Positions 4,601-55,600 of a stretch of DNA of 64,000 bases are shown one piece after another (position 1 is the first letter of the stretch; every line of letters starts with the position of its first letter). The translations under genes and the position numbers were made by a program. The notes beneath the pieces are model-generated. The model searched no databases. It was given only the letters and a program-made list of their open reading frames with translations, and was not told the origin of the DNA. Origin of the DNA: Minisyncoccota bacterium (GTDB lineage: Bacteria > Patescibacteriota > Minisyncoccia > Phycocordibacterales > GWA1-40-21). The DNA lies in contig JBAZYH010000001.1 of assembly GCA_041659365.1 (NCBI GenBank), forward strand, positions 37,590 through 101,589, given 5' to 3'.

Positions 4601-5932
4601 CTATTTTGTAAAGATAGACCTTTTTTCTCTATGATATTTAATAGCAAACCTATGAGCTTCACTGTTTGCAAGTAAAATATCGTTTGAATACTTTTCTGTT
4701 ATATTTTTAGATCCCAATATTGCTTTCGGTTTATGATATTCATCTTTTAAGACAGAAACAATCTCAATTTTAGATACTTCGCTCACCAAGGTCTCTCCTT
4801 TTTGAGGATTCAAGGAAAGACCTTTCTTCATTTCATTCAAAACTTTTCTAGCAACATTTATCTGAGCTTTTCCACCATCTACCACAATAATCTGAGGGAA
4901 AGCCCATTCTAAATGTTTAAACCTTCTCTCTAAAATTTCTCTCAAAGCATCAGTATCACTCCCCTTACTATTTCTTATAATAAATTTTCTATATTCATTT
5001 TTATTTATTTCTCCGTTTTCTATTACAGTCATTACACCAACATTATTTGTACCTGAAAGATGAGCTACATCATAAGCTTCAATACGAAACAGATGCGGAC
5101 TAGACGCGGATTTTATGCTGACTTGACGCGGAAAATTAAAAACATTTTCTTCATTATATTCAATATTCGACATTCTGTATTCATCTTTTATAAGAGCTAC
5201 ATCTTGAATATGATTTAGTGCGAAAATAGTTTTTTTAATATTATTTGCTTTTTCGAATTGTTGATTCTTAGCAAAAATGTTCATCTCTTTTTCAAGATTT
5301 TTTATTATTTGTTTTTTTCTACCTTCAAAAAATAATTTTATATTTTTAATGGTTTTTTGATATTCTTTCTTTGTAACCAAACCAACACAAACACCAGGAC
5401 AAAGTCCTATTTGATAATTAAAACATGGTTTATCCTGACCAATCTTACATTTATCTCTAAAAGGGAAAATTTTCCTTACTATTTTTATAGCTTCTTTAAG
5501 CTGACTTCCGTTTGTGTATGGTCCAAATTTTTCTTTAATCGAGTATTCTAATTTTTCAATATTTTCTAAATTTCTTCCACGTTCAACTAAAACTCTAGGA
5601 TAGTCCTCTTTTGTAATAACAACATAATTAAAACTCTTATTATCTTTTTCTTTTGTATTATATTTTGGTTGATGTTTTTTTATAAGCTCAGCTTCTAAAA
5701 TAATTGCCTCGAGAACTGAGTCTGTTTCTATATAATCAATTTTATCTGCAAGAAAAACCATATCCACAATAAGAGGACTTCTCATGGCTATCAAATCACT
5801 AGAAAAATAACTTTTTACTCTATCTTTAAGAGATGTAGCTTTTCCAATATACAAAATCCCTTTTCCTTTTTTGAAAAGATAGACACCAGGATTTTCTGGT
5901 AAAATATTATTTTTTATATATTGACTATTCAT
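4601..5932 (-). CDS. uvrC: excinuclease ABC subunit C (UvrC), short form lacking C-terminal HhH domain
   Basis: GIY-YIG N-terminus (PGVYLFKKGKGILYIGKATSLKDRVKSYF), UVR-like motif (FEKANNIKKTIFAL), and RNaseH-like endonuclease domain (RIEAYDVAHLSGT...IIVVDGGKAQI). 443 aa against about 600 typical. Confidence 0.85.
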   Translation of the reverse strand: MNSQYIKNNILPENPGVYLFKKGKGILYIGKATSLKDRVKSYFSSDLIAMRSPLIVDMVFLADKIDYIETDSVLEAIILEAELIKKHQPKYNTKEKDNKSFNYVVITKEDYPRVLVERGRNLENIEKLEYSIKEKFGPYTNGSQLKEAIKIVRKIFPFRDKCKIGQDKPCFNYQIGLCPGVCVGLVTKKEYQKTIKNIKLFFEGRKKQIIKNLEKEMNIFAKNQQFEKANNIKKTIFALNHIQDVALIKDEYRMSNIEYNEENVFNFPRQVSIKSASSPHLFRIEAYDVAHLSGTNNVGVMTVIENGEINKNEYRKFIIRNSKGSDTDALREILERRFKHLEWAFPQIIVVDGGKAQINVARKVLNEMKKGLSLNPQKGETLVSEVSKIEIVSVLKDEYHKPKAILGSKNITEKYSNDILLANSEAHRFAIKYHREKRSIFTK

Positions 5933-5995
5933 ATTTAATATGATTACATATTATCAGAAGTTATTAAACAACTCAAACAAAAAAAGGAGCTGATT

Positions 5996-6262
5996 ATGTT
6001 TTGGTCTTATGTTATGCAATCCCGCATTCTTACTGGAATACTTATCATTATTCCTGTAATTCTTTTTTTACTCTCCACGTTTGACAAAAGAGACGAAAAA
6101 AAAGAGATACTGGAACTTGAGCTTGTCGATACAAGTGATTCTGAAACAGATATGGTGGGAATAAGAAAAAAGGGAGTATTGTTTAGACGTAAACTTTACG
6201 CCGTTGCGATAGTTTTTATTATACTTTGTCTACTCAAAGAGTGCTTCTTTTGGCACTTCTGA
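5996..6262 (+). CDS. small two-TM membrane protein
   Basis: Strong RBS aaggag 8 nt upstream; two hydrophobic helices; followed by terminator accccgcgtacacaacgcggggt plus T-run at about 6268-6300. Confidence 0.5.
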   Translation: MFWSYVMQSRILTGILIIIPVILFLLSTFDKRDEKKEILELELVDTSDSETDMVGIRKKGVLFRRKLYAVAIVFIILCLLKECFFWHF

Positions 6263-6376: not shown

Positions 6377-7975
6377 TTACTTTTGTTTCTTATTTAATAC
6401 TCTCTTTAAGTATTTTCCTGTGAAGCTCTTCCCATTCATCGCAATATCTTCAGGAGTACCTTTTGCTATAATTTGTCCACCTTTATCTCCACCTTCTGGA
6501 CCAATATCTATAACATAATCAGCAGATTTTATGAGATCCATATTGTGTTCAATAACCATTACTGTATTTCCATTGTCTACAAGCTTTTGTAAAATCTCTA
6601 TAAGTTTTTTTACATCTTCATAATGAAGACCGATAGTTGGTTCGTCCAAGAAATAAATCGTCTTATACATTCCTGGTCTGTAAAGTTCTGAGGAAATTTT
6701 TACTCTTTGTGCCTCTCCACCCGAAAGGGTTGTTGCAGACTGTCCAAGCTTCAAATATCCAAGACCAACGTCATTTAGACATTTTATTCTATCGTAAACA
6801 TTGGGTATATCTAAAAAGAAATCCTGCGCCTCTTCTACAGTCATATCAAGTACTTGATGAACATTTTTTCCTTTATATTTTACTTCCAAAGTTTCTTTCA
6901 TAAATCTTTTTCCATTACAAATATCACAAGGTACATAAACCGTAGGAAGAAAATGCATTTCAACTTCTATGTTTCCATTACCTTCACAAGTTTCGCAACG
7001 CCCACCTTTTACGTTAAAAGAAAATCTATTTGCCTTCCATCCCCTTTCACGAGCCATCACAGTTGAAGCAAAAAGCTCACGAATAAATGTCCAACATCCA
7101 GTATATGTCGCCGGGTTTGAACGAGGAGTTCTACCTATTGGAGACTGATCTATCATTACAGTTCTGCTTATATATTCTGAACCAGTAAATGACGCGCAGT
7201 TATGAGTCTCCGTTGATCTCATTTTTCTCTCAAGTCTTGCCTGAAGATTTTTATATAATATTTCATATATAAAAGAAGATTTTCCAGAACCAGAAACTCC
7301 AGTGACACAAACAAGTTTACCTAGAGGAACATCAATATCCATATTTTTAATATTAAATATCTTTCCCCCTCTTATTTTTAATTTTCCTTTATCTTGATCC
7401 CTTCTTTTTTCTGGAATCTCTATTCTATCTTCTCCACGCAAATAACTAAGAGTAAGTGATCCACTTTCATTTTTCTTTGCTGTTAAAAGTTCGTCGAGAT
7501 ATCCAGTGACGACAACTTCTCCACCATGGACCCCAGCACCAGGACCAATATCTACGATAAAATCGGAAGCATACATGGTATCTTCGTCATGTTCCACAAC
7601 AATAATAGTATTACCTAAATCTCTAAGATCTGTAAGCGTTTTTATGAGTTTGTCATTATCTCTCTGGTGTAGTCCTATGGTTGGTTCATCGAGCACATAA
7701 AGCGCACCTACGAGCCCAGAGCCGAGCTGGGAGGCAAGACGGATCCTTTGAGCCTCTCCTCCAGAAAGTGTGTTTGCTCTTCTATTTAATGATAAATATT
7801 CTATACCAACATTGGTCATAAACAAAAGTCTAGAATCTATCTCTTTCAAAATAACATTCGATATTTCTTTTTCTGTTTCAGTAAGTTTTACTTCATTAAT
7901 AAAAGTTTTTGCATCTGTAATAGATTTTGCAACGTAGTCTACAATATTTAGACCATTTATAAGTATATGAAGTGC
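6377..7975 (-). CDS. uvrA: excinuclease ABC subunit A (UvrA), C-terminal segment, in frame with the upstream segment
   Basis: The same frame continues straight after the TAA: ALHILINGLNIVDYVAKSITDAKTFINEVKLTETEKEISNVILKEIDSRLLFMTNVGIEYLSL, then LSGGEAQRIRLASQLGSGLVG, the second ABC domain and LSGGEAQRVKI. The first Met of the track ORF is at 7849. Confidence 0.85.
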   Translation of the reverse strand, partial: ALHILINGLNIVDYVAKSITDAKTFINEVKLTETEKEISNVILKEIDSRLLFMTNVGIEYLSLNRRANTLSGGEAQRIRLASQLGSGLVGALYVLDEPTIGLHQRDNDKLIKTLTDLRDLGNTIIVVEHDEDTMYASDFIVDIGPGAGVHGGEVVVTGYLDELLTAKKNESGSLTLSYLRGEDRIEIPEKRRDQDKGKLKIRGGKIFNIKNMDIDVPLGKLVCVTGVSGSGKSSFIYEILYKNLQARLERKMRSTETHNCASFTGSEYISRTVMIDQSPIGRTPRSNPATYTGCWTFIRELFASTVMARERGWKANRFSFNVKGGRCETCEGNGNIEVEMHFLPTVYVPCDICNGKRFMKETLEVKYKGKNVHQVLDMTVEEAQDFFLDIPNVYDRIKCLNDVGLGYLKLGQSATTLSGGEAQRVKISSELYRPGMYKTIYFLDEPTIGLHYEDVKKLIEILQKLVDNGNTVMVIEHNMDLIKSADYVIDIGPEGGDKGGQIIAKGTPEDIAMNGKSFTGKYLKRVLNKKQK

Positions 7976-8986
7976 TTATTCTCTAAGTCTCGCACCCTTA
8001 CACTTTTCACAATCTTCATCAGAGAAAAAATCTTTTGTTCCAAGACCATTACACTCACTACATGCTCCATAGGGTGAGTTAAAAGAAAAAAGTCTAGGCT
8101 CTATCTCAGGATAAGAATATCCATCATAAGGGCACATGAATTTTACAGAAATCATTTTCTCTTCTTCAGGAGTTTCTATCTTAAGTAAACCTTTTGACTC
8201 ATCTATAGCTTTTTCTACAGCATCAGATAAACGCTCCTTAATAGCATCTTTTTTATCCTTAAACTCACTTATATAAAATTCATCGACAAGAACGTCTATG
8301 TCGTGTTTTTTATTTTTTGAAAGAATTATTTGATCCCTAAGCTTTTTAAGTTGACCATCTATTTTTACTGATTCATATCCTTTTTCAAGTAAATCATAAA
8401 GAAGCTGATAATATTCTCCTTTTCTTCCCACAACTACAGGTGAAAAAATTTTTATTTTATCACTTACAACTTCTACTCCAAGAATTTCCCTAGAATTCTT
8501 TGGTGCTTTAATTGCATAAACTGTATGAAAAATTGTTTCTAAGATTTCTTCCTTTGAAAGCTTCTTTATTTCTCTTCCACAAACCAAACAATGTGGTCTA
8601 CCAATTCTTGCAAAAAGAATTCTAAGATAATCATAAATTTCTGTAATAGTAGCTACTGTGGAACGAGGGTTATTTGAACGAGATTTTTGATCTATAGAAA
8701 TAGCTGGTGAAAGACCAATGATTTCATCCACATCCGGCTTCTGCATCTGATGTAAGAATTGTCTTGCATATGAAGAAAGTGACTCTATATATCTACGCTG
8801 GCCTTCCGCAAAAATAGTATCAAAAGCAAAAGATGACTTCCCTGAACCGGAAAGGCCTGTAACTGCTATCATCTTATTTCGAGGCATCTCAACTGTGATA
8901 TTCTTAAGATTATGAGTTCTAGCACCCCTTACAATAATCTTGTCAGAATTATGATTTACATCTGTTTTTGTTTTTTTTGTATTCAT
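7976..8986 (-). CDS. uvrA: excinuclease ABC subunit A (UvrA), N-terminal segment ending at an in-frame TAA
   Basis: UvrA N-terminus with Walker A ([25 protein letters not shown]) and zinc-finger region ([32 protein letters not shown]). Stop TAA at 7976-7978. Confidence 0.85.
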
Positions 8987-10999: not shown

Positions 11000-13063
11000 T
11001 TATTTCTTCCTTTTAATAGTTTTGACCTTTGGAGTCATTACCTTTATTTTTTCTTTCAACAATAAAATTTCGTCTCGAAGAATAGAAGCGGACTCGAAAT
11101 CTAATATTTTTACAGCGGCATTCATCTGTATTTCTTTCTGTCGAATAAGCTTTTCTGGATTTTTAACAGAGGATACCTCATCTATTCTCAAAAGCTCCTG
11201 CACGGCTTTATCATGATCACTTCTCAAATGTTCAGTAATATCTTTTATAGCCTTAATTATAGTCCTTGGAGTTATGCCATTTTTTTTATTATAGGCTATC
11301 TGTATATCTCTTCTTCTATTTGTTTCTTCTAAAGCTCTTTCTATAGAACCTGTGATTCTATCTGCATAAAGAACAACCCGTCCAGCTACGTTTCTGGCTG
11401 CACGTCCTATTGTCTGTATAAGTGAGGTATCCGAACGCAAAAATCCTTCTTTATCAGCATCAAGTATTCCTATAAACTCTACTTCTGGAAGATCAAGACC
11501 CTCTCTGAGCAAGTTTACTCCTACAAGACAGTCAAACTTCCCTCTTCTAAAACTTGTAAGAATTTCTATTCTGTCTATAGTTTTTATTTCACTATGTAAA
11601 TATTCTGCTTTAACACCTTTTTCTTTTAAATATTCACTAAGATCTTCTGCCATCTTTTTAGTAAGTGTTGTAGCAATAACTCTTCCGCCTCCTTTTATAA
11701 CTTTTAATGATTCATCTATAAAATCAAAAACTTGAGATTTATTTTTATTCTTCACTTCAGTAATCGGCCTTATTTCTACAACAGGATCAATAAGTCCAGT
11801 AGGCCTAATAACCTGCTCAACTATTTGTTCAGAATTTTCTCTCTCGTAATCTCCTGGAGTTGCTGAAGTAAAAATAACTTGATTTATTCTCTCCTCAAAT
11901 TCATCAAACTTTAGTGGTCTATTGTCCTTTGCAGATGGAAGCCTAAAACCATAATCTATAAGAGTTTTCTTTCTTGAAGCATCTCCCGCATACATACCAC
12001 GAATCTGAGAGACAGCTACGTGTGATTCATCTATAACAGTAAGAAAATCTGGAGTACCATCTTCTTTTTTAGGAAAATATTCAAGCAGACTGTCTGGAGC
12101 TTCTCCTGGATTTTTACCAGAAAAATGTCTGGAATAATTTTCTATACCATTACAATAACCAACCTCTTTTATTAAAGCGAGATCATAAGTAGTTCTCCTT
12201 CGAAGTCTTTCTGCTTCAAGATTTTTACCTTCCTTTTTCAAATCTTCGAGTTGTTTTTCCAACTCCGCTTTTATACTTTTGAAGGCTCTTTCTTGTTGTT
12301 CCTTATCTGTAATAAAATGTTTTGCAGGAAAGATAAAAATCGATTGTATATTATCTTCAACAATATTTCTTGAAACAGAATCTATTCTGGTAATAGCTGA
12401 GACTTCGTCATTCTCAATATCTATCCTTATAATAATCTTTTCGTTTACTGGCATTACTTCAATAGAATTACTTACTGCTCTAAATGTTCCAGATTTGATA
12501 TCAGAATTTGTTCTTTCAAAGTAAACACTTATAAGCTTCCTTACTAAATCTTGTCTTGAATAACTATCTCCTATTTTTAGTTTAAGATTAACTTTTTCAT
12601 ATTCCTTTGGACTTCCTAAACCATATATACAAGAAACTGATGCGACAATTATCACATCTTTCCTTGTAAGAAGTGCCTGAGTAGAAGCATGACGAAGTCG
12701 ATCAATTTCCTCATTTATCATTGCCTCTTTTTCTATATAAGTATCTGTAACAGGCATATAAGCCTCTGGCTGATAATAGTCATAATAAGAGACAAAATAA
12801 TGTACAGCATTATCAGGGAAGAATTCTTTATATTCTTGAGCAAGCTGAGCCGCAAGGGTTTTATTGTGAGCTATTACAAGAGTTGGTTTCTGTATTTGCT
12901 GGATAACATTTGCAACTGTAAAAGTTTTTCCAGAGCCAGTAACACCAAAAAGGGTTTGTTTTTTAAACCCCTTTTTAATCCCTTCAACTAGCTGTTCAAT
13001 TGCATTTGGCTGGTCACCAGCGGGAGCATAATCAGCTCGAATTTTAAACTTATTTTGTGACAT
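11000..13063 (-). CDS. uvrB: excinuclease ABC subunit B (UvrB)
   Basis: ADYAPAGDQPNAIEQLVEGI, Walker A GVTGSGKTFTVANVI, helicase motifs, C-terminal UVR domain. The track ORF starts at 13084, but the likely start is the Met at 13063 (MSQNKFKIRADY), because the upstream codons fall inside the repeat element. Confidence 0.9.
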   Translation of the reverse strand: MSQNKFKIRADYAPAGDQPNAIEQLVEGIKKGFKKQTLFGVTGSGKTFTVANVIQQIQKPTLVIAHNKTLAAQLAQEYKEFFPDNAVHYFVSYYDYYQPEAYMPVTDTYIEKEAMINEEIDRLRHASTQALLTRKDVIIVASVSCIYGLGSPKEYEKVNLKLKIGDSYSRQDLVRKLISVYFERTNSDIKSGTFRAVSNSIEVMPVNEKIIIRIDIENDEVSAITRIDSVSRNIVEDNIQSIFIFPAKHFITDKEQQERAFKSIKAELEKQLEDLKKEGKNLEAERLRRRTTYDLALIKEVGYCNGIENYSRHFSGKNPGEAPDSLLEYFPKKEDGTPDFLTVIDESHVAVSQIRGMYAGDASRKKTLIDYGFRLPSAKDNRPLKFDEFEERINQVIFTSATPGDYERENSEQIVEQVIRPTGLIDPVVEIRPITEVKNKNKSQVFDFIDESLKVIKGGGRVIATTLTKKMAEDLSEYLKEKGVKAEYLHSEIKTIDRIEILTSFRRGKFDCLVGVNLLREGLDLPEVEFIGILDADKEGFLRSDTSLIQTIGRAARNVAGRVVLYADRITGSIERALEETNRRRDIQIAYNKKNGITPRTIIKAIKDITEHLRSDHDKAVQELLRIDEVSSVKNPEKLIRQKEIQMNAAVKILDFESASILRDEILLLKEKIKVMTPKVKTIKRKK

Positions 13064-13078
13064 AATTTTGTTTTTGTG

Positions 13079-13154
13079 TGTCATTCCCGTGAAGACGGTA
13101 ATCCATGAATATTATATTTCTGTCATTGCGAGGTAGTCCGTCGCAATCCAGGTT
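13079..13154. repeat. two short palindromic repeat elements (TGTCATT-hairpin-AATCC family)
   Basis: tgtcattcccgtgaagacggtaatccatg (13079-13107) and tgtcattgcgaggtagtccgtcgcaatccaggtt (13121-13154). Confidence 0.6.
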
Positions 13155-20312: not shown

Positions 20313-21389
20313 TTAGTTTATTTTAATACACTCATTAAAAGATTGAACTTCTTTATTATATAAAGTTGTCGAGTCTTTTATATTTGAGGCAAGATTATTA
20401 AAAATATGAGCTAAGTTATTATACTCAGAGACCTTCTCATTATATTTTACAACATCAGAAGTACTAGCAACTTTTAATTCACCCTCAACTTTTTTAAGGT
20501 TTATCTTTACCACACTTAAAGCATCATTATTTTTTTCTATCGTTGCTTTGTTAGAATTATTTGGCTCAACACAAAAAGACATCGGCTTACTAAAAATCTG
20601 TGCTGATATCCATACTTTTTTACCTTTATATTCACCCTCCCTTGAATATACACCGATTTCTGTATAATTTTTATTTAAAATATTTGCTCGATGTCCTTCA
20701 CTGTCCATCCAAGCCTGAACGATTTCTCTAGAACTACCAAAATTACCCAATGCAATATTTTCACCAATTATTATATATTTATAATTATTTTTTTCTGCCA
20801 GCTTAGAAGCAGAGTCTCCCGTAGGAGAAACATGCTCAAAATAAGTTTTTGCAAACATATCGTCAACACGCCCTTTTGCTATCTTCGTTAGACTATCGCT
20901 TGATTTAAGCTGCGTAAGATTTGTAGCATTTTTATTTCTCTCAATATTTGTCCAATATATTATCTGACCATCATTCAAAATCAAACTATCATTCGGACTT
21001 TCACTATCTACGAGTGGTTGGGGTAAAAGCTTATTTTTTGTTACAATATTCTTTTCTGTAATAATAGGAGTTGTGGTGCTTTCAATACCGATTTTTTCTT
21101 CTTTAACTAACGTAAGATATTCTTTCTCTTTCCCAACACAAACTTTATTACCAAAAAGTACCCTGAATTCACCTTCTTTCCATTGACCATTAGAGACAGC
21201 AAAAAAATATTGAATACAAAATTCTCTTCTTATTTGCTCGGTAATATTACTGTCTATAAAAATAATAATATTATCTATCTTTTGAAAGATTGTGTCTAAG
21301 GCAGAAGCTTTAGTAATAGAGATAGAAAAAATACAAAAAAATATCACCACCAAGAATAGTATTTTTGTGCCAATTTTATACAAATTCAT
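20313..21389 (-). CDS. secreted CAP/SCP (PR-1-like, YkwD-type) domain protein
   Basis: Signal peptide; CAP core GRVDDMFAKTYFEHVSPTGDSASKLAEKNNYKYIIIGENIALGNFGSSREIVQAWMDSEGHRANILNKNYTEIGV. Confidence 0.6.
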   Translation of the reverse strand: MNLYKIGTKILFLVVIFFCIFSISITKASALDTIFQKIDNIIIFIDSNITEQIRREFCIQYFFAVSNGQWKEGEFRVLFGNKVCVGKEKEYLTLVKEEKIGIESTTTPIITEKNIVTKNKLLPQPLVDSESPNDSLILNDGQIIYWTNIERNKNATNLTQLKSSDSLTKIAKGRVDDMFAKTYFEHVSPTGDSASKLAEKNNYKYIIIGENIALGNFGSSREIVQAWMDSEGHRANILNKNYTEIGVYSREGEYKGKKVWISAQIFSKPMSFCVEPNNSNKATIEKNNDALSVVKINLKKVEGELKVASTSDVVKYNEKVSEYNNLAHIFNNLASNIKDSTTLYNKEVQSFNECIKIN

Positions 21390-21450
21390 ATATCAATATA
21401 TTATCACAAAAATACTTTTTTGTATTTTATTTATAGTGTATAATATCTAT

Positions 21451-21858
21451 ATGAATTTTTTGAAAACTATTTTTGGTTATCTTAAATGGCACTATGGAAA
21501 AGCTCTCTTTGCAACATTCTCTTTATGGAAAAATCTTCTTTTTTTCCTGTTACGTTTTTTTTCACTTAAAAGTTTACTCACAAATTTCTTTGCACCATGG
21601 AAAAGACTCACAGAAAGCTATCCTAGAAATTTTGGAATAGACTCAGATACCCTGAAAAAGTATCTAAATACTTTTACTATAAATACAATAATGAGATTGT
21701 TCGGAATGATTTTCAGAACTTTTGCGATTACTATTGGACTAATCTGTTGTCTTACTTTTATTCTCCTACTTCCTTTTACACTAGCTTTTTGGTTAGCTTT
21801 ACCTGTTTTAATAATAGGATCTTTTTTATTTGGGTTAGTCTTAATCTTCTCCTATTAA
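21451..21858 (+). CDS. small polytopic membrane protein (about 135 aa), immediately upstream of the ClpB-like gene
   Basis: Start set at the Met at 21451 (MNFLKTIFGY); 3-4 TM helices. The ClpB-like ORF starts 7 nt after the stop, so probably co-transcribed. Confidence 0.45.
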   Translation: MNFLKTIFGYLKWHYGKALFATFSLWKNLLFFLLRFFSLKSLLTNFFAPWKRLTESYPRNFGIDSDTLKKYLNTFTINTIMRLFGMIFRTFAITIGLICCLTFILLLPFTLAFWLALPVLIIGSFLFGLVLIFSY

Positions 21859-21864
21859 ATTTTT

Positions 21865-24336
21865 ATGAAAATCAACGATTATTTAAAACAAAGTTCCTTA
21901 CATAATGTATTAACCGTAGAATCTATTGTTTCAGAAAACTTCAGAAATAAAATATCTAAATTTTCTGAAAATATGATTTATATTATTATTTTTGTAATAA
22001 TAATATATTTTCTAATAAAAGATACGGAAAAGTTTATTATATACAAACAAGCTATAGACTTCATAATACCTAAAATTATTGGACTACTCTTTATAAATAT
22101 TGGTTTACTATTTTTTTCAAAATTAATAGACTTTTATTTCTCTTCTACATACTACTTTGAAAAAATAACAAAAAATAATTATAGTAAAGATGAAATGTAT
22201 ACTTTTTCTGTTGGAAGGGTTCTTTATGCAGGTAGAAAAACAGATATTTTACATGGCTTCATGGATTCAAAAATAGGAAAGGAAGTTTTTCTAAGACTTG
22301 GTATTGGAGACGAAGATAAAGAAAATTTCTACAATACACAAAAAATAGAACCCGAAGATGTAATGCCTCAATCTAAAGGAGACATAATGAAACTGGAAGA
22401 TATTATAAATTATCTTTGTGATTACAAGAAAAATTTCATTAGTTTCTTAAACGAAAAAGGTATAAATAAAAATGACCTACTAGGAACAATAAACTGGGTT
22501 ATATATGAAATAGAGTCAGAAGAATACGAAAAACAGTGGTGGAGACCAGAAACTCTATTAAAAACAAAAGGTATGTTTGATGATTGGTCTTTTGGCAAAA
22601 CATATGTCCTCGATAAATACAGTAGAAATATATTAGAAGACGAAGAGGTCAACTCTGAGGCGATGATAATATCTAACCGTGAATCAGAAGTAGTACAAAT
22701 AGAAAATGCCCTTTCAAAATCTTCTGGTTCAAATGTAATGCTTGTAGGAAATCCTGGTCAAGAAAAAATTCAGGTAATATGGAGTCTTTGTAGAAACCTC
22801 AAAAAAAGAAAAGTTACTTCAAAAATACTTGGTAAAAAAGCTATACTCCTCTCAGTAAATTCTCTTATTTCTGTGTGCAAAGATAAAAACTCTTTTGAAG
22901 AACAACTAATAAAAATATTAAATGAGGTAACACACTCTGGAAATATTTTTCTTGTTATAGATAATTTTATTCAACTTTCAAATACAGCAAAAAAGCTTGG
23001 CAGCGATTTCACAAATATTTTTAATCCATTCTTAGAAAATTCTATTGTTCAGATAATCGCCCTGGTAAATACAAATGATTTTCACCAGTATATTGAAAAA
23101 GATAAAACATTACTTAATAACTTTGAAGTTATTTATGTTAAACCATTAGCTACAGAAGAAATAATAAAAATAATTTATGCTTCTGCACTAAACACAGAAA
23201 AACATTATGGTATATATTTTACATATCAAGCAATCAAAGAACTCGCCGAAGGTTCCGCGTACTACTTCTCTGATGGGGTTTCGACAGATAAAGCAATATC
23301 TCTTCTAAACGAAATATCTCCTTGGGCTAAAAGAAATGATAAAATTATTATTGGAAAAGATGAAGTTCTAGATTTTATAGAAAAAAAGACAAATATTCCT
23401 ACAAGTGGAAAAATATCGATAGATGAAAAAGATAAACTCTTAAAACTTGAGGAACTAATTCAAAAAAGAGTTATTGGGCAAGATGACGCTATTGTAGCTA
23501 TTAGTAATGCTCTAAGAAGAGCTAGAACAGGCGTAAGGAACCAAAATAAGCCTATAGGGTCATTCTTATTCTTTGGACCAACTGGTGTAGGAAAAACCGA
23601 AACAGCAAAAGCTTTAGCATACGTGTTTTTTGGTAATGAAGAAAACATGATGAGACTGGATATGTCTGAATATCAAACAGATGACGCAATAGAGAAACTC
23701 ACCGGTTCATTTACTACAGGTAAAACTGGAATCTTCTCAGATATGTTAAGAGAAAAACAATACGGTGTTATTCTTTTAGACGAATTTGAAAAAGCAAATA
23801 AAGATGTATTGAACTTATTTCTTCAAATATTTGATGAGGGATTTTTCTCCGATATGTCAGGACAAAAGATAAATACCAGAAATATTATTTTTATAGCCAC
23901 ATCAAACGCTGGAGCAGATACAATATTTGACATAGTAAATAAAGGTGAAAATCCAAAAAATAAAAAAGAGGAAATAATTGCAGATATAGTAAGTAGAGGT
24001 TTATTTAAACCAGAGCTTATAAACCGCTTTGATGGGACAATAATTTTTAAACCACTAGAGCACGATGATTTACTTAAAATTGCAGATATAATGCTAAAAA
24101 AAGTTTCCGAAAGAATACTTGAAAAAGGTCTCTCCATTGAATATGGTGATGACGTAATAGAATATATAATTACAAATGGAACAAACAAAGTTTTTGGTGC
24201 AAGACCTATGAATAGATTTATACAAGACTCCATAGAAGCACAAACAGCAAAACTTATAATTTCTGGAGAAGCAGTTTCTGGACGAACAATAAAATTTATT
24301 ATTGAGAATAATATACTTTTAGCAAAGATTGTATAG
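21865..24336 (+). CDS. membrane-anchored ClpA/ClpB-like AAA+ ATPase with a degenerate first nucleotide-binding domain
   Basis: The N-terminal 100 aa hold 2-3 TM helices instead of a Clp N-domain. D1 Walker A is degenerate (VMLVGNPGQEKIQVIW). D2 is canonical ClpB-like: VIGQDDAIVAISNALRRARTGVRNQNKPIGSFLFFGPTGVGKTETAKALA...ILLDEFEKANKDVLNLFLQIFDEG...FIATSNAG...ELINRFD. Confidence 0.75.
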   Translation: MKINDYLKQSSLHNVLTVESIVSENFRNKISKFSENMIYIIIFVIIIYFLIKDTEKFIIYKQAIDFIIPKIIGLLFINIGLLFFSKLIDFYFSSTYYFEKITKNNYSKDEMYTFSVGRVLYAGRKTDILHGFMDSKIGKEVFLRLGIGDEDKENFYNTQKIEPEDVMPQSKGDIMKLEDIINYLCDYKKNFISFLNEKGINKNDLLGTINWVIYEIESEEYEKQWWRPETLLKTKGMFDDWSFGKTYVLDKYSRNILEDEEVNSEAMIISNRESEVVQIENALSKSSGSNVMLVGNPGQEKIQVIWSLCRNLKKRKVTSKILGKKAILLSVNSLISVCKDKNSFEEQLIKILNEVTHSGNIFLVIDNFIQLSNTAKKLGSDFTNIFNPFLENSIVQIIALVNTNDFHQYIEKDKTLLNNFEVIYVKPLATEEIIKIIYASALNTEKHYGIYFTYQAIKELAEGSAYYFSDGVSTDKAISLLNEISPWAKRNDKIIIGKDEVLDFIEKKTNIPTSGKISIDEKDKLLKLEELIQKRVIGQDDAIVAISNALRRARTGVRNQNKPIGSFLFFGPTGVGKTETAKALAYVFFGNEENMMRLDMSEYQTDDAIEKLTGSFTTGKTGIFSDMLREKQYGVILLDEFEKANKDVLNLFLQIFDEGFFSDMSGQKINTRNIIFIATSNAGADTIFDIVNKGENPKNKKEEIIADIVSRGLFKPELINRFDGTIIFKPLEHDDLLKIADIMLKKVSERILEKGLSIEYGDDVIEYIITNGTNKVFGARPMNRFIQDSIEAQTAKLIISGEAVSGRTIKFIIENNILLAKIV

Positions 24337-27546: not shown

Positions 27547-28188
27547 TTATCGAATACAACGAAATAAACCTATATCACCATCATTGTTATATGTTAAATT
27601 AGGAACAACAACACCATTACCATATTCAACAATATAAAACATTCCACCATCTTCTGTTTCTGTACTAGATAAATAAAAACCAGCTTCACTATTTCTTTTA
27701 AATTTTAAATCATTATTTCCAAAAACTTGATAAGTTAAAGTTTCAATAATTTCATCTTTTGTTGGAAGTCTTTTACCCTTAGAAAAACATTTATCTTTTG
27801 CGTAAGAATAAACACCCTTATCATCTTCATCATCCCATAAATTAAGACTATATTCTGAACATTTATCTGTTGTCTCTCCACAATTAATACCAAAATACAT
27901 TAACTGAGGATTAGGAGTAATTTCTGGTATATAAACCTTACTTTCGTCAGATAATGCTACTTCTAAATCATTTATGGTACCCCCAGGATAATATCCGTTA
28001 TCAGAATAAAACATATTTATAGCATTTTTAACTTGTGCAAGCTGTTGTATTCCAGCAGTTTCTTTTGCTTTTTCTTTTGCATTATTTAAAGAAACTATAA
28101 CAATAGTAGTTAAAAACCCAATGATTGATACAACAACCAGTATTTCTATAAGAGTAAAACCTTTTAAAAATTTATTCCTATTTTTCAT
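27547..28188 (-). CDS. type IV pilin-like protein (prepilin-type N-terminal cleavage/methylation domain)
   Basis: N-terminus KGFTLIEILVVVSIIGFLTTIVIVSL is the class III signal (G/FTLIE) plus hydrophobic helix; the C-terminal globular domain has several Cys. Confidence 0.7.
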   Translation of the reverse strand: MKNRNKFLKGFTLIEILVVVSIIGFLTTIVIVSLNNAKEKAKETAGIQQLAQVKNAINMFYSDNGYYPGGTINDLEVALSDESKVYIPEITPNPQLMYFGINCGETTDKCSEYSLNLWDDEDDKGVYSYAKDKCFSKGKRLPTKDEIIETLTYQVFGNNDLKFKRNSEAGFYLSSTETEDGGMFYIVEYGNGVVVPNLTYNNDGDIGLFRCIR

Positions 28189-49663: not shown

Positions 49664-52600
49664 TTAATAATTAATCTTTCTACCACGACGAATGATAAAA
49701 ATTGTTACAAAGTATATTAAAGCAATAGAGACTATTAAGGTAAAAATATTCTGTACCTTAAACACCTTCCCCCACCCAAACTCCCCCTTCATCTCCACAT
49801 TCATAAATACACCTTTACTCTCCTCCACTTTGAATGATTCACTCTGGTAATCAGAGTATCCAAGGGCAGTAACTGTAAGGTAATAATCTCCAGGAGGAAC
49901 AAGGAATGAGTATCTTCCTGTCACATCGGTTGTTTGTGGATTCTTTTGTTTGAAATTATCTCCTGGCCAGAGTTCGTAGGTAGAAGTCTCTGGATTCTTC
50001 CAGTAGATAGAAGATACAGCATTAGCAATACGTATTTCTTTGTCACCACCAATCTTCTCATATATATATCCTTCAGGATCAACAAGTACAATCATACTTA
50101 GTTCTCTTTGTTCTTTCGTTTTATCTTCATAACTAATTATGGTCTTTAGTTCATATTGTCCAAGAGTATATGGAGAAGACACATCTGCAGTCCAGATACC
50201 ATTACCACTATCCTTGTAATCAAACTTAGCTACAACAAGTTCTCTTTCCTCTACAGCATCTAGTACTGAAGCATTTTGTTTTACATAACTTTCTTGAAAC
50301 ATTAGATATCCATCGATTCTTTTAGCTTTTGATTCTGGTTTGACTGCAAACTTGAGTAACTGTCCTTGTATAGTGTTTAATTTTTGTGTAGTAAATCCCT
50401 CATTTGATACAGATAGTTTTACATTTAAATCTATAGATTCATCGAATGTTCTTACAAAGATTAAGTTTGTAGGAACTTTATTACTTTGTGTTTGTGTGAA
50501 GTTTGAAATAGAAATATTGTTTGATAGACCAAAGTATTCTGCAAGACCTGGTAATAAAACTCCACCCATAGATAGGTCATTATTTAATGATGTTATAGTT
50601 GGGAACTTATTTATTATGTTCTTGAAAGCTACTGGTAAGTTGATGAGGTTCACCATTTCTGATGGAACTATTTCTCCTATATTATTATTTAAATTAGTTT
50701 GATCTTCTTCTGTAACAGATACTGGTGGAAGAGTAACTTCTGGTACTGGTATTATTGAAGTAATAATATCAATAATCTTTTCTATTGTAGGTGTGGTACT
50801 TAGGGTAACTGAGGTAGAAACAACTGATGAAGCTACGTTTGAAGCATCAAGTGATCTTGCATATACAGTATAGTCCCCATCAGGACAGGTTGTATCTGCT
50901 CCACAGAGATTGTATTCATATGTGGTTTGTACTGGAATGATTATCGCTTTATTGAAATCTGGATTATTAGATATTATTATCAGCTTGGTATCTGTATTGG
51001 GTGTGATATTAAGTGTGACTATTCTATCATCAGTCCTATTTGATGTTCGTATATCAAATAGGTTATCTGGTGTAGTTTGTGATGTTGTTGTAATAGGTTC
51101 TGATGTAGTTGTTCCACCGCTACTACCTCTTACTCTATATGTTATGTGAGTTGTACTACTTGTAGAGTCAGAATTATTGTAAGAATCATTACATGCAATG
51201 TATATGTCTTTAGTACCTGAAGTAAATGATGGTAGTGTACATGAGATTAATAAACTATTTGATGTACATGAGATGTCTGCTGACATATCATCATATGATT
51301 TGTTTGTAATGGCTAGTCTACAATCTCCATTTTCACTTATAGTGAAAGTTACAAGTTGACTTGCACGTGAGATATAGGAGTCGTCTGCAGGGGAAACACT
51401 TGATACTGTCGGTGCACTAGCATCCCATGTAAGTATATATTCATCATATGTAGAATTTCCTGCATTATCTGTGACTGTAAGTCTAATTGTATAAGTACCA
51501 TCTGTAGTTGCAGATATTGTTGTTGATGAAGCTGTAGTTGTACCGAATGTTATACCTATACCAGACCAAAGATATGAAGCTATACCTGAAGTAGTATCGC
51601 TTGATGTAGAAGTCTGAGTGAAGGTGGATGATCGAGTTTGATCTAATCCAACAGTAGTCGTTGGAACTGTGATATCAAGTATAAATGACCCCATAGAAGT
51701 AAAACTAGACGCAAGCGATCCATCATTATTTTGTGCACACCAATAATATGTACCATCCAAACCGATAGTAGATGATGGGGTGTAGGTAGTTGTGGCAGAA
51801 TCAGAAACAGTTTCTGTAGATGTACCAGAATTTACAATGTTTAAATTATTTAAACAATCATTTGCTGTAGTAGAAGATATACGATAGTTGGTAGTACCAG
51901 TATCTCCAGTATTTGGATCTGAATAATAAGCTGAGAGTGTCGGAGTGTTGTCGTTTGTATAAGAAGCGTTTGACGGAGATACTAATGTTGGTATGTTTGG
52001 AGCAGAGTTGAATGTCCAATTTGTATTATTACCACTATCTACAGAGTTCATTGGAGCTATTGCTTTCCCACTTGCAGTAGAATCTTTTATATTTAAATAG
52101 TTTGCTATGACAGTAGCTGGATTACTTACATTAATATTCCACTTGGTGCCAGAGATACTTGATATCAAACTAAGTAAATTATTTGCTATACCACTGAGTG
52201 TAAGAGAATTAGATATATTTGTAGTAGAGTTTGCCGCAAACGTAAGAGTACTGCTACTTGTAACTGATTTTACAAAATTATAGAAAGTATTTGAACCTGT
52301 TATGGATTGATTTTCTCCATTGAAAGTTATTGTAGAGCTACCTGTGTTGAAAGTGCCGGAGTTGGTGAGGTTTCCACTGAGGTTTATGTTGTGGTTGTTG
52401 GTTGTAAAAATAGAATTCGCACTGATTGTAAAATCACCCAAGAATGTTACTGGATTTTGTAGACTAATTGTTGAAATACTTAAATCAACTTCATTTCCAG
52501 AACCCAAATTATAAATATCATCTATTTCACTTTGCGTTAAGGCAACATTATAAATCCTAATATCATCCAAGCTTCTTTCCTGATTGTTTACTGAAGGTAG

Positions 52601-55600
52601 AGAACCTAATAAAAATGACAAACCCGTTGTATCTACTGAAGCAGAAGATGTCAAAGGTGATGTTGCCAAAACTCCATTAATATATGTTTTCCAAGAGCTA
52701 CCATCTCTCATAAATGTTAGATGCGTCCATTCTCCACCACTTATGGGCATAGAATATTGTCCTTCTCCAGCTGGAGTATTAAACGCAATTCTACCACTAT
52801 TACTCCAATATGAATAAATAACATAATTACTGAATCCAAACAAACCAGCATGAGAAGAACTATTTGACATTCTCGCCCAGAAAGATATTGTCCAATTATT
52901 AGTTCCACTAAAAGTATCTTTAATAACAGAGGCATCTATATTATTTTCTCCTGAAAATGCCAAGGCAGTATTTATTTTTCCTGAGGTTGTTAATATACTT
53001 GTATCTTGAGAAGCCGTCACATCAAAATTATTTGAGGTATTATCATCCACTGTTGTTCCACTCGTATCATTCATCCTATAATGAGCAACAAGTCCATTTG
53101 CGACTGAAGAAAAAATTGATACATCATTCAAATTAGAAACCCCCACATCCAAAGACGTAGTCGCCCCGTTAAGAGTCAACGTTCCACCATTTGCATTAAA
53201 ATTATCAGAGTTTGTAAAATTACCAGAGACAGTAAGATTACCAGAAGTAGAGTTAAATGTTCCAGAATTGATTAATAAATCTCCAGTTAAAGTAATACTG
53301 TTCGTTCCTCCATTAAATACTCCATTGTCTTGAGTAAAATCACCTGAAATAGAAAGTGTACCAGAGGTTGAATTAAATATTCCATCTGATATAGATAAGT
53401 TACCACTTAGAGTTATGGCTCCTGTTCCTCCATTGAAAGTTCCATTGCTTTGAGTGAAACCACTCGTACTAAGTGTATTTGATATTGTAAGAGTTCCTAC
53501 ATTTAGTATTACCCCACCAGTAAAGGTATTAGCTCCTGTAAGAGATAATTCTCCTGTACCAGCTTTTGTCATAGAGTATGCACCAGAGACTATTCCTCCG
53601 ACAGTAAGTTTAGCGGTGTTGTTTGTGGTAATGATACGATTTGCTGGTAAGGTAATATTTGCAGTACCCAGATTCAAATCATTAGTTCCACCAAAAGTAA
53701 TATCACCACTCCATGTCTGCGCATTATTTCCAGACAGTGTCACAGCACTAACTGAAGTATTATCTATTGTTCCACCTACTATAATAAGTGAACCTGCACC
53801 AATAGCACCAGCACTATTTATATTTAATGTACCAGCATTTAGAGTTGTAGATGTTATTGTGTTTGAGTTTATTAAAGTCAGTATTCCATCATTTTGAGTA
53901 ATGGAAGTTGCTGTAATAGTATATGATGATGTTTGAGTTATTGTGCCTGTATAACCTGTAGCAATAGTAAGAGTACCAGTAGTAACATTTGTATCTATAT
54001 CACAATTTGTTGTGTCGGCACTATCAAAAGTTACTGGTTGTCCTGCCTCAGGAACTCCAGCTCCACCTGCACCTCCAGAAGTTAATGACCAATTGTTTGT
54101 ATCATTCCAACTAGATGTTGAACCTACCCAATATTTAGATACTGAAGGAGTTGAAGGAATAGCCACTTCTCCTGCTATCCATGTTGGTCCACTTATTAAT
54201 GTTCCATTATTTGCACTATCTGAGAAATCAGAAACTGCTGTTCCTGTACCTTCATCAAAATGATAACCAGCAACTAAACCACTATTAAACGGAGCTACTG
54301 TTTTGTCTCCATAAACTCCAGTACCACTATTATATAGACCGAGTATTTCTGGAGCTGATAAAGTACGGTTCCAGATATTTATTTCGTCCAAACCACCATT
54401 CAAAAACCAAGATGAATCAGCACCCATGCCGAAATATTTAATATTGACGATATTTGTGATTGGTTTAGAGTCTTGGTATTGCGCACCGTCAATATAAAGT
54501 GTTGCGGTTCGTCCAACTCCTTCTGTATATGACTCTGTTAGAGTGACTAAATGCCAACCAGTCCAAGTAAGACCATCCATACCCATCCAATTAATTTGGA
54601 CGCCATCAGTATTTGAGCCAAAATAAAGATTATTATCAGAATACCAAAGACCAAAGTATGCCACATTTACACCTGTACCTCCAATCAAAGCATTGGATGC
54701 TGTAAAATCCTTTACCCATAGTGAATATGTCATATCAACACCACTGTCTGCTATTGGAGTTGTCAAATCGACATAACTACTTCCACCAAAACTCAAAGCA
54801 TAACTACCTTCAGTTGGATCAACTACGTAATCCACCTCCACCTCTCCGATAATCTTTAGATCAAAAACATCTGTCGGACTACCAAGCTCAGGTATAAGCT
54901 TTTTATAAAGTCCTTCATGATCAATATTAAATGTAGCGACAAGTTGATTAGTATCTGTAGTATAAGCTTCTATAGTTACAGGAGTAGAACTTGCAGGTTT
55001 GGCATAGATAGTAATATCATTTGCATTAGTAAGTATTTTTTCAAAGGTAACTCTGACATATTGTCCATCTGATAAAGGAGCGTAGTTACCATCTTGTGTT
55101 TTTACAGTGTCATAAATATCAGCAAGTATTTCTTTGTTTGCATCAAGTTGAAAAGCTTTTGAAATAAATATGATTTCAAAAGTCTGGACTGATAAGTGAG
55201 GTACTGTCCATTCTACATAGTCTAGCTTTCCATTGTTGTCGAGGTCATATGCTTTGAAGGTGACATTCTGATCTCCGTTGTTTGACCACTTTATTTTTAT
55301 TTTATCTTCTTGTCCTACTTTATATATTTCAGGAATGTTTGTAAAAGCCAGAACGTTTGTTATTGGTATTTCTCCTTCTACAGAAGAAACAGTAACTACC
55401 TTACCTGTGTCTGTTGTAGCTTCGGCTATTGTAGGGGCTGGAGTTTCATATTCAACAGTAACCAAGTCGGTTGATGTTGCAGTTGTAGAAGTAGAAGTTG
55501 TACTTGTTATAAATGTTGGAATTGATGTAGATGCTAATTCATCTAAAACTTTTATATCTTCATTTGACGAACCTCCACCACCTCCACCTGTTGTGATTTC

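Follow-up and report, generated by a model that had tools for sequence, protein, structure and literature searches.

The stretch of DNA analysed here (64,000 nucleotides, hereafter the window) carries a two-gene unit that is a real unit of ultra-small CPR/Patescibacteria bacteria, in which the gene for a small membrane protein is followed by that for a membrane-anchored descendant of the class-I Clp/Hsp100 proteins. Judging from its motifs, the first ring of this ATPase (D1) is catalytically dead, the second (D2) is the sole one with an intact ATPase site, and the pore-loop tyrosines are gone from both. These features suggest a membrane-embedded remodelling complex of the two proteins, specific to Patescibacteria, that would be driven by D2, would work with neither ClpP nor DnaK, and would probably not thread its clients, a reading to which we give about an even chance. 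The function of the ATPase probably differs from that of the 'ClpC' as which it is annotated.

The two-gene unit, its partner protein and its neighbourhood

Two forward-strand ORFs separated by a 6-nt spacer make up the unit, and both genes, as well as the motifs quoted for them in a preliminary description of this DNA, are present in the sequence. The unit and its upstream flank comprise:

20313..21389, reverse strand: gene for a secreted CAP-domain protein, divergent (Pfam CAP, 1.1e-14)
21438..21445, forward strand: extended -10-like element TGTATAAT, by sequence reading, 5 nt upstream of the ATG of the small gene
21451..21858, forward strand: gene for the small membrane partner (ORF, 135 aa)
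21475..21606, forward strand: conserved N-terminal amphipathic region of the small protein (aa 9-52), with W-H-Y and FFxPW[KR]R signature motifs
21712..21849, forward strand: C-terminal transmembrane hairpin of the small protein (aa 88-133; 46 residues, Kyte-Doolittle 2.1-2.7)
21865..24336, forward strand: gene for the membrane-anchored Clp/Hsp100-like ATPase (ORF, 823 aa)

The position of TGTATAAT is possibly that of a promoter giving a leaderless transcript of both genes. A consensus scan also returned promoter-like sites at 21375-21404, the overall count of such sites being not above chance. An alternative GTG start for the small gene at 21292 was ruled out, since it overlaps the CAP gene and every homologue begins at the MNFLK position.

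More than 100 loci homologous to the unit were recovered, and the operon-like pairing proposed in the preliminary description is upheld by a gene order conserved across genome and metagenome loci. The small gene lies upstream of the ATPase gene in 7/7 loci found through the ATPase, and when loci were found through the small protein alone a Clp-like gene followed it in 17/17 genome loci and in 42 of the 44 metagenome loci (scanned with an alignment of 11 small-protein sequences). The spacing between both genes is often between -4 and +13 nt, and a pilin-like gene is inserted between them in two loci. In a natural fusion (P0200, on a single 4.5-kb contig) the hairpin of the partner stands in place of the ATPase's own.

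The membrane-anchored ATPases form one clade apart from canonical ClpB/ClpC in 100/100 bootstraps, with an outgroup of four ClpB/ClpC sequences only, and every named clade member belongs to Patescibacteria; the sequence from the window is identical to that of a Candidatus Paceibacterota MAG (P0001). Intact full-length ATPase ORFs were found in more than 100 loci, with identities down to 31%.

The small protein gave zero family matches in Pfam, NCBIfam and PADLOC, none of 69 diverse members of its family matched a consistent Pfam family, and a profile search against solved structures returned a chance match only (Lon, E 0.12). An exhaustive profile search collected 572 cluster representatives at E<=1e-10 and, with the limit set at E<=1e-3, 1,217, nearly all of them 120-140 aa long. 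This sizeable, uncharacterised family without a Pfam entry now has a clear physical context. Y10, W13, H14, F37, S38, L42, P49 and R52 are fully or almost fully conserved, a weaker amphipathic stretch at aa 16-49 stays under the transmembrane threshold (Kyte-Doolittle 1.2-1.4), and the turn of the C-terminal hairpin holds conserved W114 and P118.

Regarding the neighbourhood, the CAP gene is syntenic with the unit in the subclade of the window, where it occupies the same position in 17 loci; in the scan of upstream neighbours in metagenome loci, 7 of 65 proteins belong to the CAP family. The gene is absent from the distant loci L003, L004, L006 and L007. Downstream neighbours in the metagenome loci include PAP2 (8/65) and MraZ (8/65). 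A Pfam scan placed mraZ-rsmH directly downstream of the unit in three loci (L065, L082 and L103), and L003 has FtsQ upstream and YkuD/Peptidase_S11 downstream. One locus carries GroES-GroEL directly upstream of the unit and a T4SS_pilin gene after the ATPase gene. These neighbourhoods suggest that the unit acts in the cell envelope or in division, and its recurrent place beside mraZ-rsmH and FtsQ is a starting point for learning how tiny CPR cells divide. The links may partly be inherited subclade synteny, with contexts varying by subclade (CAP/PAP2, mraZ, GroESL).

The neighbourhood also bears on the earlier proposal of a motor for secretion or toxin delivery, comparable to ClpV of type VI secretion or HSP101 of the Plasmodium PTEX translocon. 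Such a role would suit a Clp/Hsp100 relative placed at the membrane and paired with a membrane protein, as would the partial match to NCBIfam TssH/ClpV (316 bits) and the pilin genes mentioned above. The TssH score is, however, far from its cut-off (TIGR03345, 316 vs 885), no secretion-system genes recur among the 130 neighbour proteins, no T6SS genes were found there or within the window, and the context in the window is one of housekeeping genes. Moreover, the pore loops are lost and, because the anchor is N-terminal, the D2 exit would face the cytoplasm, opposite to PTEX, with the entry rather than the exit face at the membrane. The proposal is consequently set aside as very unlikely. A place in anti-phage defence was likewise rejected: the Dodola protein DolB matches D2 only (profile positions 120-277 of 375), and the chromosomal context is housekeeping. 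PADLOC gave no match for the small protein or the CAP protein.

Membrane anchor, N-domain and the two rings of the ATPase

Solved ClpB structures matched the 823-aa ATPase with E values down to 1e-99 (1e-98 for E. coli ClpB), and its AlphaFold2 model (pLDDT 85.6, pTM 0.76) retrieved ClpC/ClpB chains in Foldseek at E 1e-45 to 1e-36. These results agree with the AAA_2 and ClpB_D2-small matches of the Pfam search and with the Clp/Hsp100 ancestry assigned earlier, and together with the more than 100 homologous loci they lie well outside what chance would give. The large subunit is a class-I Clp/Hsp100 descendant, its tandem AAA+ modules, D1 and D2, and its C-terminal D2-small domain being homologous to those of ClpA/B/C. 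Its order is conserved tail, two-helix hairpin, Clp N-domain, D1 and D2:

21865..21960, forward strand: conserved N-terminal tail (aa 1-32) with near-invariant R27, from family alignments
21961..22017, forward strand: transmembrane helix 1 (aa 33-51; Kyte-Doolittle 2.3, model helix H24-51)
22060..22140, forward strand: transmembrane helix 2 (aa 66-92; Kyte-Doolittle 2.3, model helix H61-102)
22192..22536, forward strand: divergent Clp N-domain (aa ~110-224) with invariant R144
22537..22632, forward strand: family-specific linker WWRxExL...WSFGxTYxLDKYS (aa 225-256)
22672..23334, forward strand: D1 AAA+ module (aa ~270-490), pseudo-ATPase ring with fold kept and catalytic motifs gone
22747..22770, forward strand: D1 Walker A remnant GNPGQEKI (aa 295-302), aligned with GEPGVGKT of E. 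coli ClpB
22948..22965, forward strand: D1 Walker B remnant FLVIDN (aa 362-367), aligned with LFIDEL, catalytic Glu replaced by Asn
23548..24033, forward strand: D2 large AAA+ domain (aa 562-723; Pfam AAA_2, 4e-42)
23704..23730, forward strand: D2 pore-loop-1 position GSFTTGKTG (aa 614-622), by alignment with GAPPGYVGYEEGG
24055..24294, forward strand: D2 small domain (aa 731-810; Pfam ClpB_D2-small, 2.5e-20)

The Kyte-Doolittle profile places two hydrophobic helices within residues 1-100, which the AlphaFold2 model shows as long helices, in agreement with the membrane anchoring proposed before. This two-helix hairpin recurs in nearly all full-length homologues, and canonical ClpB does not have it; across the family, Kyte-Doolittle values are 2.0-3.0 for helix 1 in nearly all homologues and 1.6-2.6 for helix 2. 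The N-terminal tail would be cytoplasmic, because it is followed by a hairpin of two helices and the ATPase domains must be cytoplasmic. On the contrary, the idea that transmembrane helices had replaced the N-domain does not hold: the protein carries the double repeat of Clp_N, its N-domain model matches the ClpC N-domain, and the domain is therefore a divergent but genuine Clp N-domain to which the hairpin was added in front. The linker that follows (W225, W226, L231, S242, G244 and K251 invariant in alignment A8) is less variable than the N-domain, with entropies of 1.86 and 2.57, respectively.

D1 aligns with E. coli ClpB 157-417 (82 bits), with a weak Pfam AAA_lid_9 match. Its Walker A has Glu in place of the last Gly and Ile in place of the Thr, so that the lysine stays and the GK[ST] signature is gone; the KYRG pore loop reads KDKN and the RR of the Arg fingers reads NN. 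D2 aligns with E. coli ClpB 533-851 (250 bits, ~40% identity) and displays GPTGVGKT (aa 571-578), LLDEFEKA (aa 637-644), ATSNAG and IGQDDAIVAISNALRRARTG. Its Walker A, Walker B, sensor 1, Arg finger (R721) and sensor 2 (R780) are clade-invariant. Functional Walker A and B motifs, which a class I protein would have in both modules, are thus found in D2 (GPTGVGKT, LLDE) and not in D1 (GNPGQEKI, VIDN). The D1 Walker A stays degenerate on realignment, and the earlier view of an inactivated D1 beside a D2 that alone is active is supported.

Decay of D1 is stepwise within the clade. This progressive loss of motifs, together with truncated and split copies (L070, L048) and forms devoid of rings, might be taken as the mark of a decaying ClpB relic, a nascent and functionless pseudogene. 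Such a view is already contradicted by the wide occurrence and divergence of intact full-length ORFs, by the invariance of the D2 catalytic residues, by the conserved motifs of N-tail, hairpin and linker, and by the retention of the partner, and we find it scarcely credible.

Pore loops, ringless forms and a proposed mechanism

D2 was earlier called textbook, a description that does not fit its pore loop, which is short, without tyrosine and hypervariable. GSFTTGKTG is four residues shorter than canonical GAPPGYVGYEEGG and lacks the tyrosine of GYVG, and its entropy lies at the 96th percentile of D2 windows, that is, among the most variable 4%. F616 occupies the loop in the subclade of the window, with aliphatic residues there in other members. 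The pore-loop-1 tyrosines (KYRG in D1, GYVG in D2) are absent in all ~50 diverse clade members, and the label 'unfoldase' given before is not supported on these grounds. Because they are missing in both rings, processive threading by pore-loop tyrosines is most likely absent; the absence of tyrosines alone is no proof against threading.

Other missing parts concern partners. No counterpart to the ClpB M-domain (ClpB 417-533) was found, residues 498-507 bridging D1 and D2, and the complex would therefore work without DnaK coupling. The [LIV]G[FL] ClpP-docking loop after D2 sensor 1 falls in an alignment gap, the segment being as short as that of ClpB, where the ClpC-like P0085 and P0092 carry LGF, which suggests operation without ClpP. 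The JGI annotation would instead make the protein an ordinary ClpC/ClpA-type partner of ClpP with an unusual N-terminus, and the counts of Méheust et al., with ClpP in 1,327 CPR genomes and ClpX in only 33, could favour it. The missing docking loop already contradicts this reading, the NCBIfam ClpA score is far below its cut-off (TIGR02639, 359 vs 993), D1 is dead and the pore-loop tyrosines are absent, all of which makes it highly improbable.

Forms without both ATPase rings have at least two independent origins and keep the partner gene. They end just past the WWRxExL part of the linker and have drifted apart to 42-88% identity without change of length; 241-aa examples came to light in a homologue search with the N-terminal alignment. 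Stop-codon recoding (UGA read as Trp at W241) was rejected as an explanation of these proteins, there being no downstream AAA-coding sequence in any frame and a conserved IKPLIK tail. Because such forms arose, kept the partner gene and diverged at constant length, the platform of hairpin, N-domain and partner can stand alone.

In the D2-driven complex that we favour, the ATPase would assemble as a hexamer like its relatives, and the N-terminal position of the anchor would bring its N-domain/D1 face up against the membrane from the cytoplasm. D1 would serve as a structural scaffold, like the inactive rings of other double-ring AAA+ proteins, and the partner hairpin may pack against that of the ATPase. 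Hydrolysis in D2 would then remodel or release membrane or envelope clients held on the platform formed by the N-domain and the partner.

Extraction and quality control of membrane proteins, also proposed before, are kept as a tentative rival, possible yet appreciably less probable. Here a ring with its entry face down, as in FtsH/Msp1, would thread damaged or mislocalised membrane proteins through D1 and D2, and the small protein would be a receptor or a lipid-thinning element. It is favoured by (i) the N-terminal hairpin, which sets the entry face at the membrane in an FtsH-like manner, (ii) the intact D2 site and the retained Clp N-domain, where substrates and adaptors are known to bind, (iii) the GroES-GroEL pair upstream in one locus, and (iv) the rarity of ClpX, hence a reduced quality-control capacity. 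Against it, neither ring conserves an aromatic pore-loop residue clade-wide, the loop of D2 is shortened and ranks with the most variable segments of that ring, ringless forms persist with the partner gene, and no protease or ClpP-docking loop would be at hand to receive what is extracted.

A further reading, which we hold to be unlikely, sees the pair as a bacterial counterpart of Torsin and its cofactor, made by Patescibacteria out of their Hsp100 chaperone, in which a non-threading, membrane-embedded ring and the dedicated small protein would remodel the membrane or the division and cell-wall machinery, with the platform as core and the ATPase dispensable. The handling of lipids or wall precursors could be included, in organisms unable to make lipids of their own.

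Significance and comparison with known systems

Much of bacterial diversity lies within CPR/Patescibacteria, whose 'ClpC/ClpB' routinely passes for an ordinary chaperone of the cytoplasm: Méheust et al. (2019) treated CPR ClpC/ClpB as one family, flagged it as without transmembrane helices and called it equally distributed. No description of a membrane-anchored Hsp100 in CPR was found in the literature. Should a large proportion of the CPR proteins prove to be anchored, with a dead D1 and without ClpP loop, M-domain and pore tyrosines, the proteostasis network inferred for CPR is wrong, and ClpP would be left with no obvious partner in many of these organisms. The clade is also a natural experiment, combining a perfect D2 site without threading loops, graded D1 decay and ringless variants.

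ClpB/Hsp104 gives the closest sequence and structure matches and shares with the ATPase the order N-domain, D1, D2 and D2-small, the lack of a ClpP-docking loop and the intact D2 catalytic motifs. In contrast to it, the ATPase has no M-domain, a dead D1, no pore-loop tyrosine, a transmembrane hairpin and an obligate membrane partner, and its NCBIfam ClpB score is 396 vs a cut-off of 1232 (TIGR03346). ClpC/ClpA shares the name given by the pipeline, chains among the top Foldseek matches, the absence of a long M-domain (cf. ClpA) and a ClpC-like N-domain, whereas the ATPase differs in being membrane-anchored, in its dead D1 and in having no ClpP-docking loop, no UVR or short M-domain and no GYVG.

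With FtsH/Msp1 the protein has in common the N-terminal anchor and the ring entry face at the membrane, the two-helix form of the anchor being common to FtsH. It lacks their membership of the classical AAA clade, single ring and aromatic pore loop, as well as the M41 protease domain of FtsH; Pfam gave no Peptidase_M41 match in the ATPase, and the anchor alone is common. In NSF (D2), p97 (D1) and Pex1/Pex6 (D1) an inactive ring is kept as a structural or assembly scaffold and the other ring works. These proteins belong to another AAA+ clade, and their active ring, unlike here, keeps aromatic pore loops.

Torsin is a Clp/Hsp100 relative without aromatic pore loops, membrane-associated and dependent on a membrane cofactor (PMC5425593). 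The likeness to Torsin with LAP1/LULL1, of the eukaryotic ER and nuclear envelope, which is functional only, lies in the absence of threading aromatic pore loops, the N-terminal hydrophobic segment and the transmembrane cofactor (PMC5425593). The differences are that the ATPase has two rings in place of a single AAA+ module, and that its D2 keeps Arg finger R721 and sensor 2 R780, where Torsin has no Arg finger of its own. Torsin is lumenal and its cofactor has a degenerate AAA+ fold, whereas the partner here, 135 aa long, has no AAA-like domain. The single module, missing Arg finger and AAA-like cofactor that mark a Torsin-like system are thus not those of this unit. Nonetheless, in probably not threading with pore-loop tyrosines, which both rings lack, the complex would be closer in its mode of action to Torsin and its membrane cofactor than to ClpB.

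The two genes and their setting in the window

The window is AT-rich (GC ~32%), and family scans of its gene content identify it as a housekeeping chromosome region. UvrB, Tgt, FKBP, LOG-like, SIMPL, pseudouridine synthase and CAP-protein genes lead up to the two-gene module, after which come genes for DNA-alkylation repair, a DEAD helicase, a pilin-like protein, an exonuclease, RpoD, DnaG, RpoC and RpoB. The module and the adjoining CAP gene are placed as follows.

20313-21389, (-) strand: CAP-domain gene, with orthologues in 17 loci (alignment A6)
21451-21858, same strand as the large gene: small gene, ORF of 135 aa
21865-24336, same strand as the small gene: large gene, ORF of 823 aa

The spacer between small and large genes is 6 nt. 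An extended -10-like element, TGTATAAT, lies at 21438-21445, only 5 nt 5' of the small-gene ATG, and no Shine-Dalgarno sequence is present ahead of that ATG in the window; judged by these signals, the two-gene operon may be expressed from a leaderless mRNA. Elsewhere in the window, a type IV pilin-like protein with the N_methyl motif KGFTLIEILVV is encoded 3 kb downstream of the module (27547-28188, (-) strand). A 2,259-aa ORF containing Laminin_G_3, PKD-like and PATR repeats (49664-56443, (-) strand) probably encodes a giant surface/adhesion protein, a type that episymbiotic CPR bacteria often have, and a 336-aa ORF matching the UvrA interaction domain only (7976-8986, (-) strand), beside uvrB (11000-13084), may be a piece of a split or frameshifted uvrA.

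A Candidatus Paceibacterota MAG encodes the 823-aa protein at 100% identity; NCBI now names this phylum Minisyncoccota, i.e. Patescibacteria/CPR. Curated libraries (Pfam, NCBIfam) contain no family-level model for either the large or the small protein, and a literature search for membrane-anchored Hsp100 in CPR found no description. In the survey of Méheust et al. (2019), CPR "ClpC" proteins were pooled with canonical ones in a family that is listed for 1,355 CPR genomes and has no TM helices flagged; the genomes listed for ClpX number only 33, and those for ClpP 1,327, all CPR.

Architecture of the large protein and decay of D1

Every motif string quoted in the preliminary description is found in the sequence. 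Pfam also returns the two domains it pointed to, AAA_2 at aa 562-723 (4e-42) and ClpB_D2-small at aa 731-810 (2.5e-20), with no match to Clp_N or to an AAA domain on the first module. The top NCBIfam models are ClpB, ClpA, ClpV, ClpK and ClpG, all scoring far under their curated cut-offs (e.g. 396 vs 1232 bits for ClpB). Alignment to solved E. coli ClpB pairs D2 with residues 533-851 (250 bits) and D1 with residues 157-417 (82 bits), leaving the M-domain (ClpB residues 417-533) with no counterpart. The [LIV]G[FL] ClpP-docking loop is likewise not found in the aligned protein, its position being occupied by LGF in ClpC-like sequences of the same alignment.

The transmembrane helices proposed within residues 1-100 are borne out by a Kyte-Doolittle scan, with hydrophobic peaks at aa 33-51 and aa 66-92 that are kept in nearly all full-length homologues and in no canonical ClpB. 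A confident AlphaFold2 model built from a 58-sequence family alignment (pLDDT 85.6, pTM 0.76) renders these peaks as long helices, H24-51 and H61-102. A family-specific linker motif, WWRxExL...WSFGxTYxLDKYS (aa 225-256), leads into D1, which keeps its fold and has lost its catalytic motifs. When aligned to ClpB, its Walker A is indeed degenerate (GEPGVGKT to GNPGQEKI), Walker B changes from DE to DN, the pore loop from KYRG to KDKN and the Arg fingers from RR to NN. The D2 module, initially described as textbook, shows no variation in either Walker motif (A or B), in sensor 1, in the Arg finger (R721) or in sensor 2 (R780). Its pore loop departs from GAPPGYVGYEEGG to a shorter GSFTTGKTG, devoid of tyrosine.

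Full-length homologues form ~83 clusters of 811-853 aa (most 823-830) with identity down to 31%, and wherever their source is named it is CPR. The distant relatives P0086, P0096, P0116 and P0120 also have N-terminal TM helices; a Clp_N that Pfam can detect and the D1 GxxGxGK[ST] are retained in some. The ATPases of 80 further loci, retrieved using the small protein alone, are all N-terminally hydrophobic-anchored, mostly with two peaks (one above threshold in eight). Across ~50 diverse members, D2 never varies in its catalytic motifs and always has a short pore loop lacking tyrosine; in none of them does D1 retain the pore tyrosine or the Arg fingers. Their D1 Walker A motifs form a series, from GEPGVGKK or GEPGTGRK with a Walker B DE in the least decayed, through GxPGQEK[IM] with DN in the window's clade, to unrecognisable versions such as ADDDLQMI and ANTSDIAM. 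A neighbour-joining tree of D2 places all the membrane-anchored members in one clade apart from canonical ClpB/ClpC (100/100 bootstraps), with P0086 and P0096 basal; its small outgroup of four canonical ClpB/ClpC sequences sets the clade apart rather than fixing its exact placement within Hsp100. In two loci the ATPase gene is split or truncated after D1 (L070 552-2138, 528 aa; L048 6392-8008, 538 aa) with D2 apparently in the next ORF; such copies could reflect a frameshift, a sequencing error or a real gene split.

The small partner, its pairing with the ATPase and ring-less variants

The small protein combines a conserved, amphipathic N-terminal region, bearing the signature motifs W-H-Y and FFxPW[KR]R, with a 46-residue hydrophobic hairpin that constitutes the C-terminal end of its 135 aa. 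No family match for it was obtained in Pfam, NCBIfam or PADLOC, and none of 69 diverse members gave a consistent one. An exhaustive profile search collected representatives of 1,217 clusters defined at 50% identity, of which 572 reach E<=1e-10; nearly all are 120-140 aa long.

The two-gene arrangement noted in the window is conserved: the small gene lies directly 5' of the ATPase in 7/7 loci found through the ATPase, the most distant of them included (partners of 116 and 70 aa). Conversely, among loci found through the small protein, the ATPase is directly 3' in 17/17 from GTDB genomes, every one a Patescibacteria MAG, and likewise in 42/44 metagenome loci whose downstream sequence spans >=3 kb. 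The spacing in these metagenome loci often falls between -4 and +13 nt. Adjacency of the two genes is essentially absolute. In two loci (L060 ~6400-7200, L096 ~6400-7230) a type IV pilin-like gene, with an N-terminal KKAFTLIELL methylation motif and a LamG-like domain, sits between them.

P0200 (768 aa; L026 1108-3414), known from a single 4.5-kb contig, is a natural fusion in which aa 1-125 of the small partner are joined to an ATPase that has no TM hairpin of its own and an incomplete N-domain, the partner hairpin standing in place of the ATPase's own. This swap is consistent with a shared topology and physical contact of partner and ATPase.

Other variants lack both rings. Seven clusters of 241-aa proteins (P0293-P0299; 42-88% mutual identity, constant length) comprise tail, hairpin, N-domain and WW motif, and end in ...WWRPExLxxIKPLIK. 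At L025 synteny is fully kept, with CAP gene, small gene, N-terminal fragment (5001-5726) and DNA-alkylation gene, and no AAA-coding sequence is found at the locus. An independent 218-aa truncation with the same boundary occurs in a different subclade (L052 6377-7033). Both forms stop just past WWRxExL and have the small partner gene upstream, with no AAA rings found elsewhere in the two loci; from their sequences, ring-less forms arose at least twice. Given their constant length and kept partner, the membrane platform and partner seem to be kept even where the motor is absent. At L025, the AAA-ring site is occupied by a ~490-nt GC-rich insert (5727-6219) that looks foreign in a surrounding genome of ~30% GC and encodes a small lipoprotein-like ORF (MKLTKEMIAVLVLVLVVACATS...).

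Gene neighbourhoods and proposed activity

In the window's subclade, the secreted CAP-domain gene is transcribed divergently beside the module in 17 loci, and PAP2 is often downstream. The CAP protein carries a signal peptide, and its conserved C-terminal region combines repeated YN..V..YN motifs with conserved cysteines; a ~170-aa membrane protein with H/D motifs (alignment A7) follows its gene in most loci. Distal-clade modules sit immediately 5' of mraZ-rsmH, where the division and cell-wall cluster begins; MraZ accounts for 8/65 downstream neighbours. At L003 the module has an FtsQ-like gene on one side and YkuD/Peptidase_S11 on the other, and at L007 GroES-GroEL precede it. These context signals may partly be inherited synteny. 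The distal clade also has two further conserved small genes upstream of the module (L055 5293-5976; L058 5594-5932; L074 164-873; others), encoding a ~112-aa 2-TM protein (…WTLYxSYNIFT…GIKLIKK) and a ~115-aa soluble one (KIFWTKHS..KMRQYR.SEKRVLRIL…ISAWRYPG), neither matched in Pfam. Secretion, defence and mobile-element genes are not recurrent among module neighbours; with secretion genes not recurring and a housekeeping context in the window, the suggestion of a motor for secretion or toxin delivery is not upheld.

By what is known of the family, the large protein would form a hexamer, its N-terminal anchor setting the N-domain/D1 face against the membrane, with D1 as scaffold and D2 as sole motor. 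There is about an even chance that the module works as an ATP-driven complex that remodels membrane or envelope clients. The main rival, an extractase that would pull membrane proteins out by threading them, is rather unlikely: the D2 pore-loop segment has an entropy at the 96th percentile among 7-residue windows of D2, and so is not constrained as a substrate-gripping loop would be, and the lack of aromatic pore loops, M-domain and ClpP loop makes processive threading improbable.

Owing to the same three absences, the large protein cannot act like the canonical machines: ClpB works by DnaK-coupled disaggregation, whereas the clade protein has no M-domain, and ClpC/ClpA feed ClpP, whereas it has no ClpP loop. 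The likeness to Torsin is functional only, the clade protein lacking the defining Torsin features. Considered by analogy, however, Torsin, a Clp/Hsp100 relative that is without aromatic pore loops, membrane-associated and dependent on a transmembrane cofactor (PMC5425593), is the nearest functional precedent for the module.
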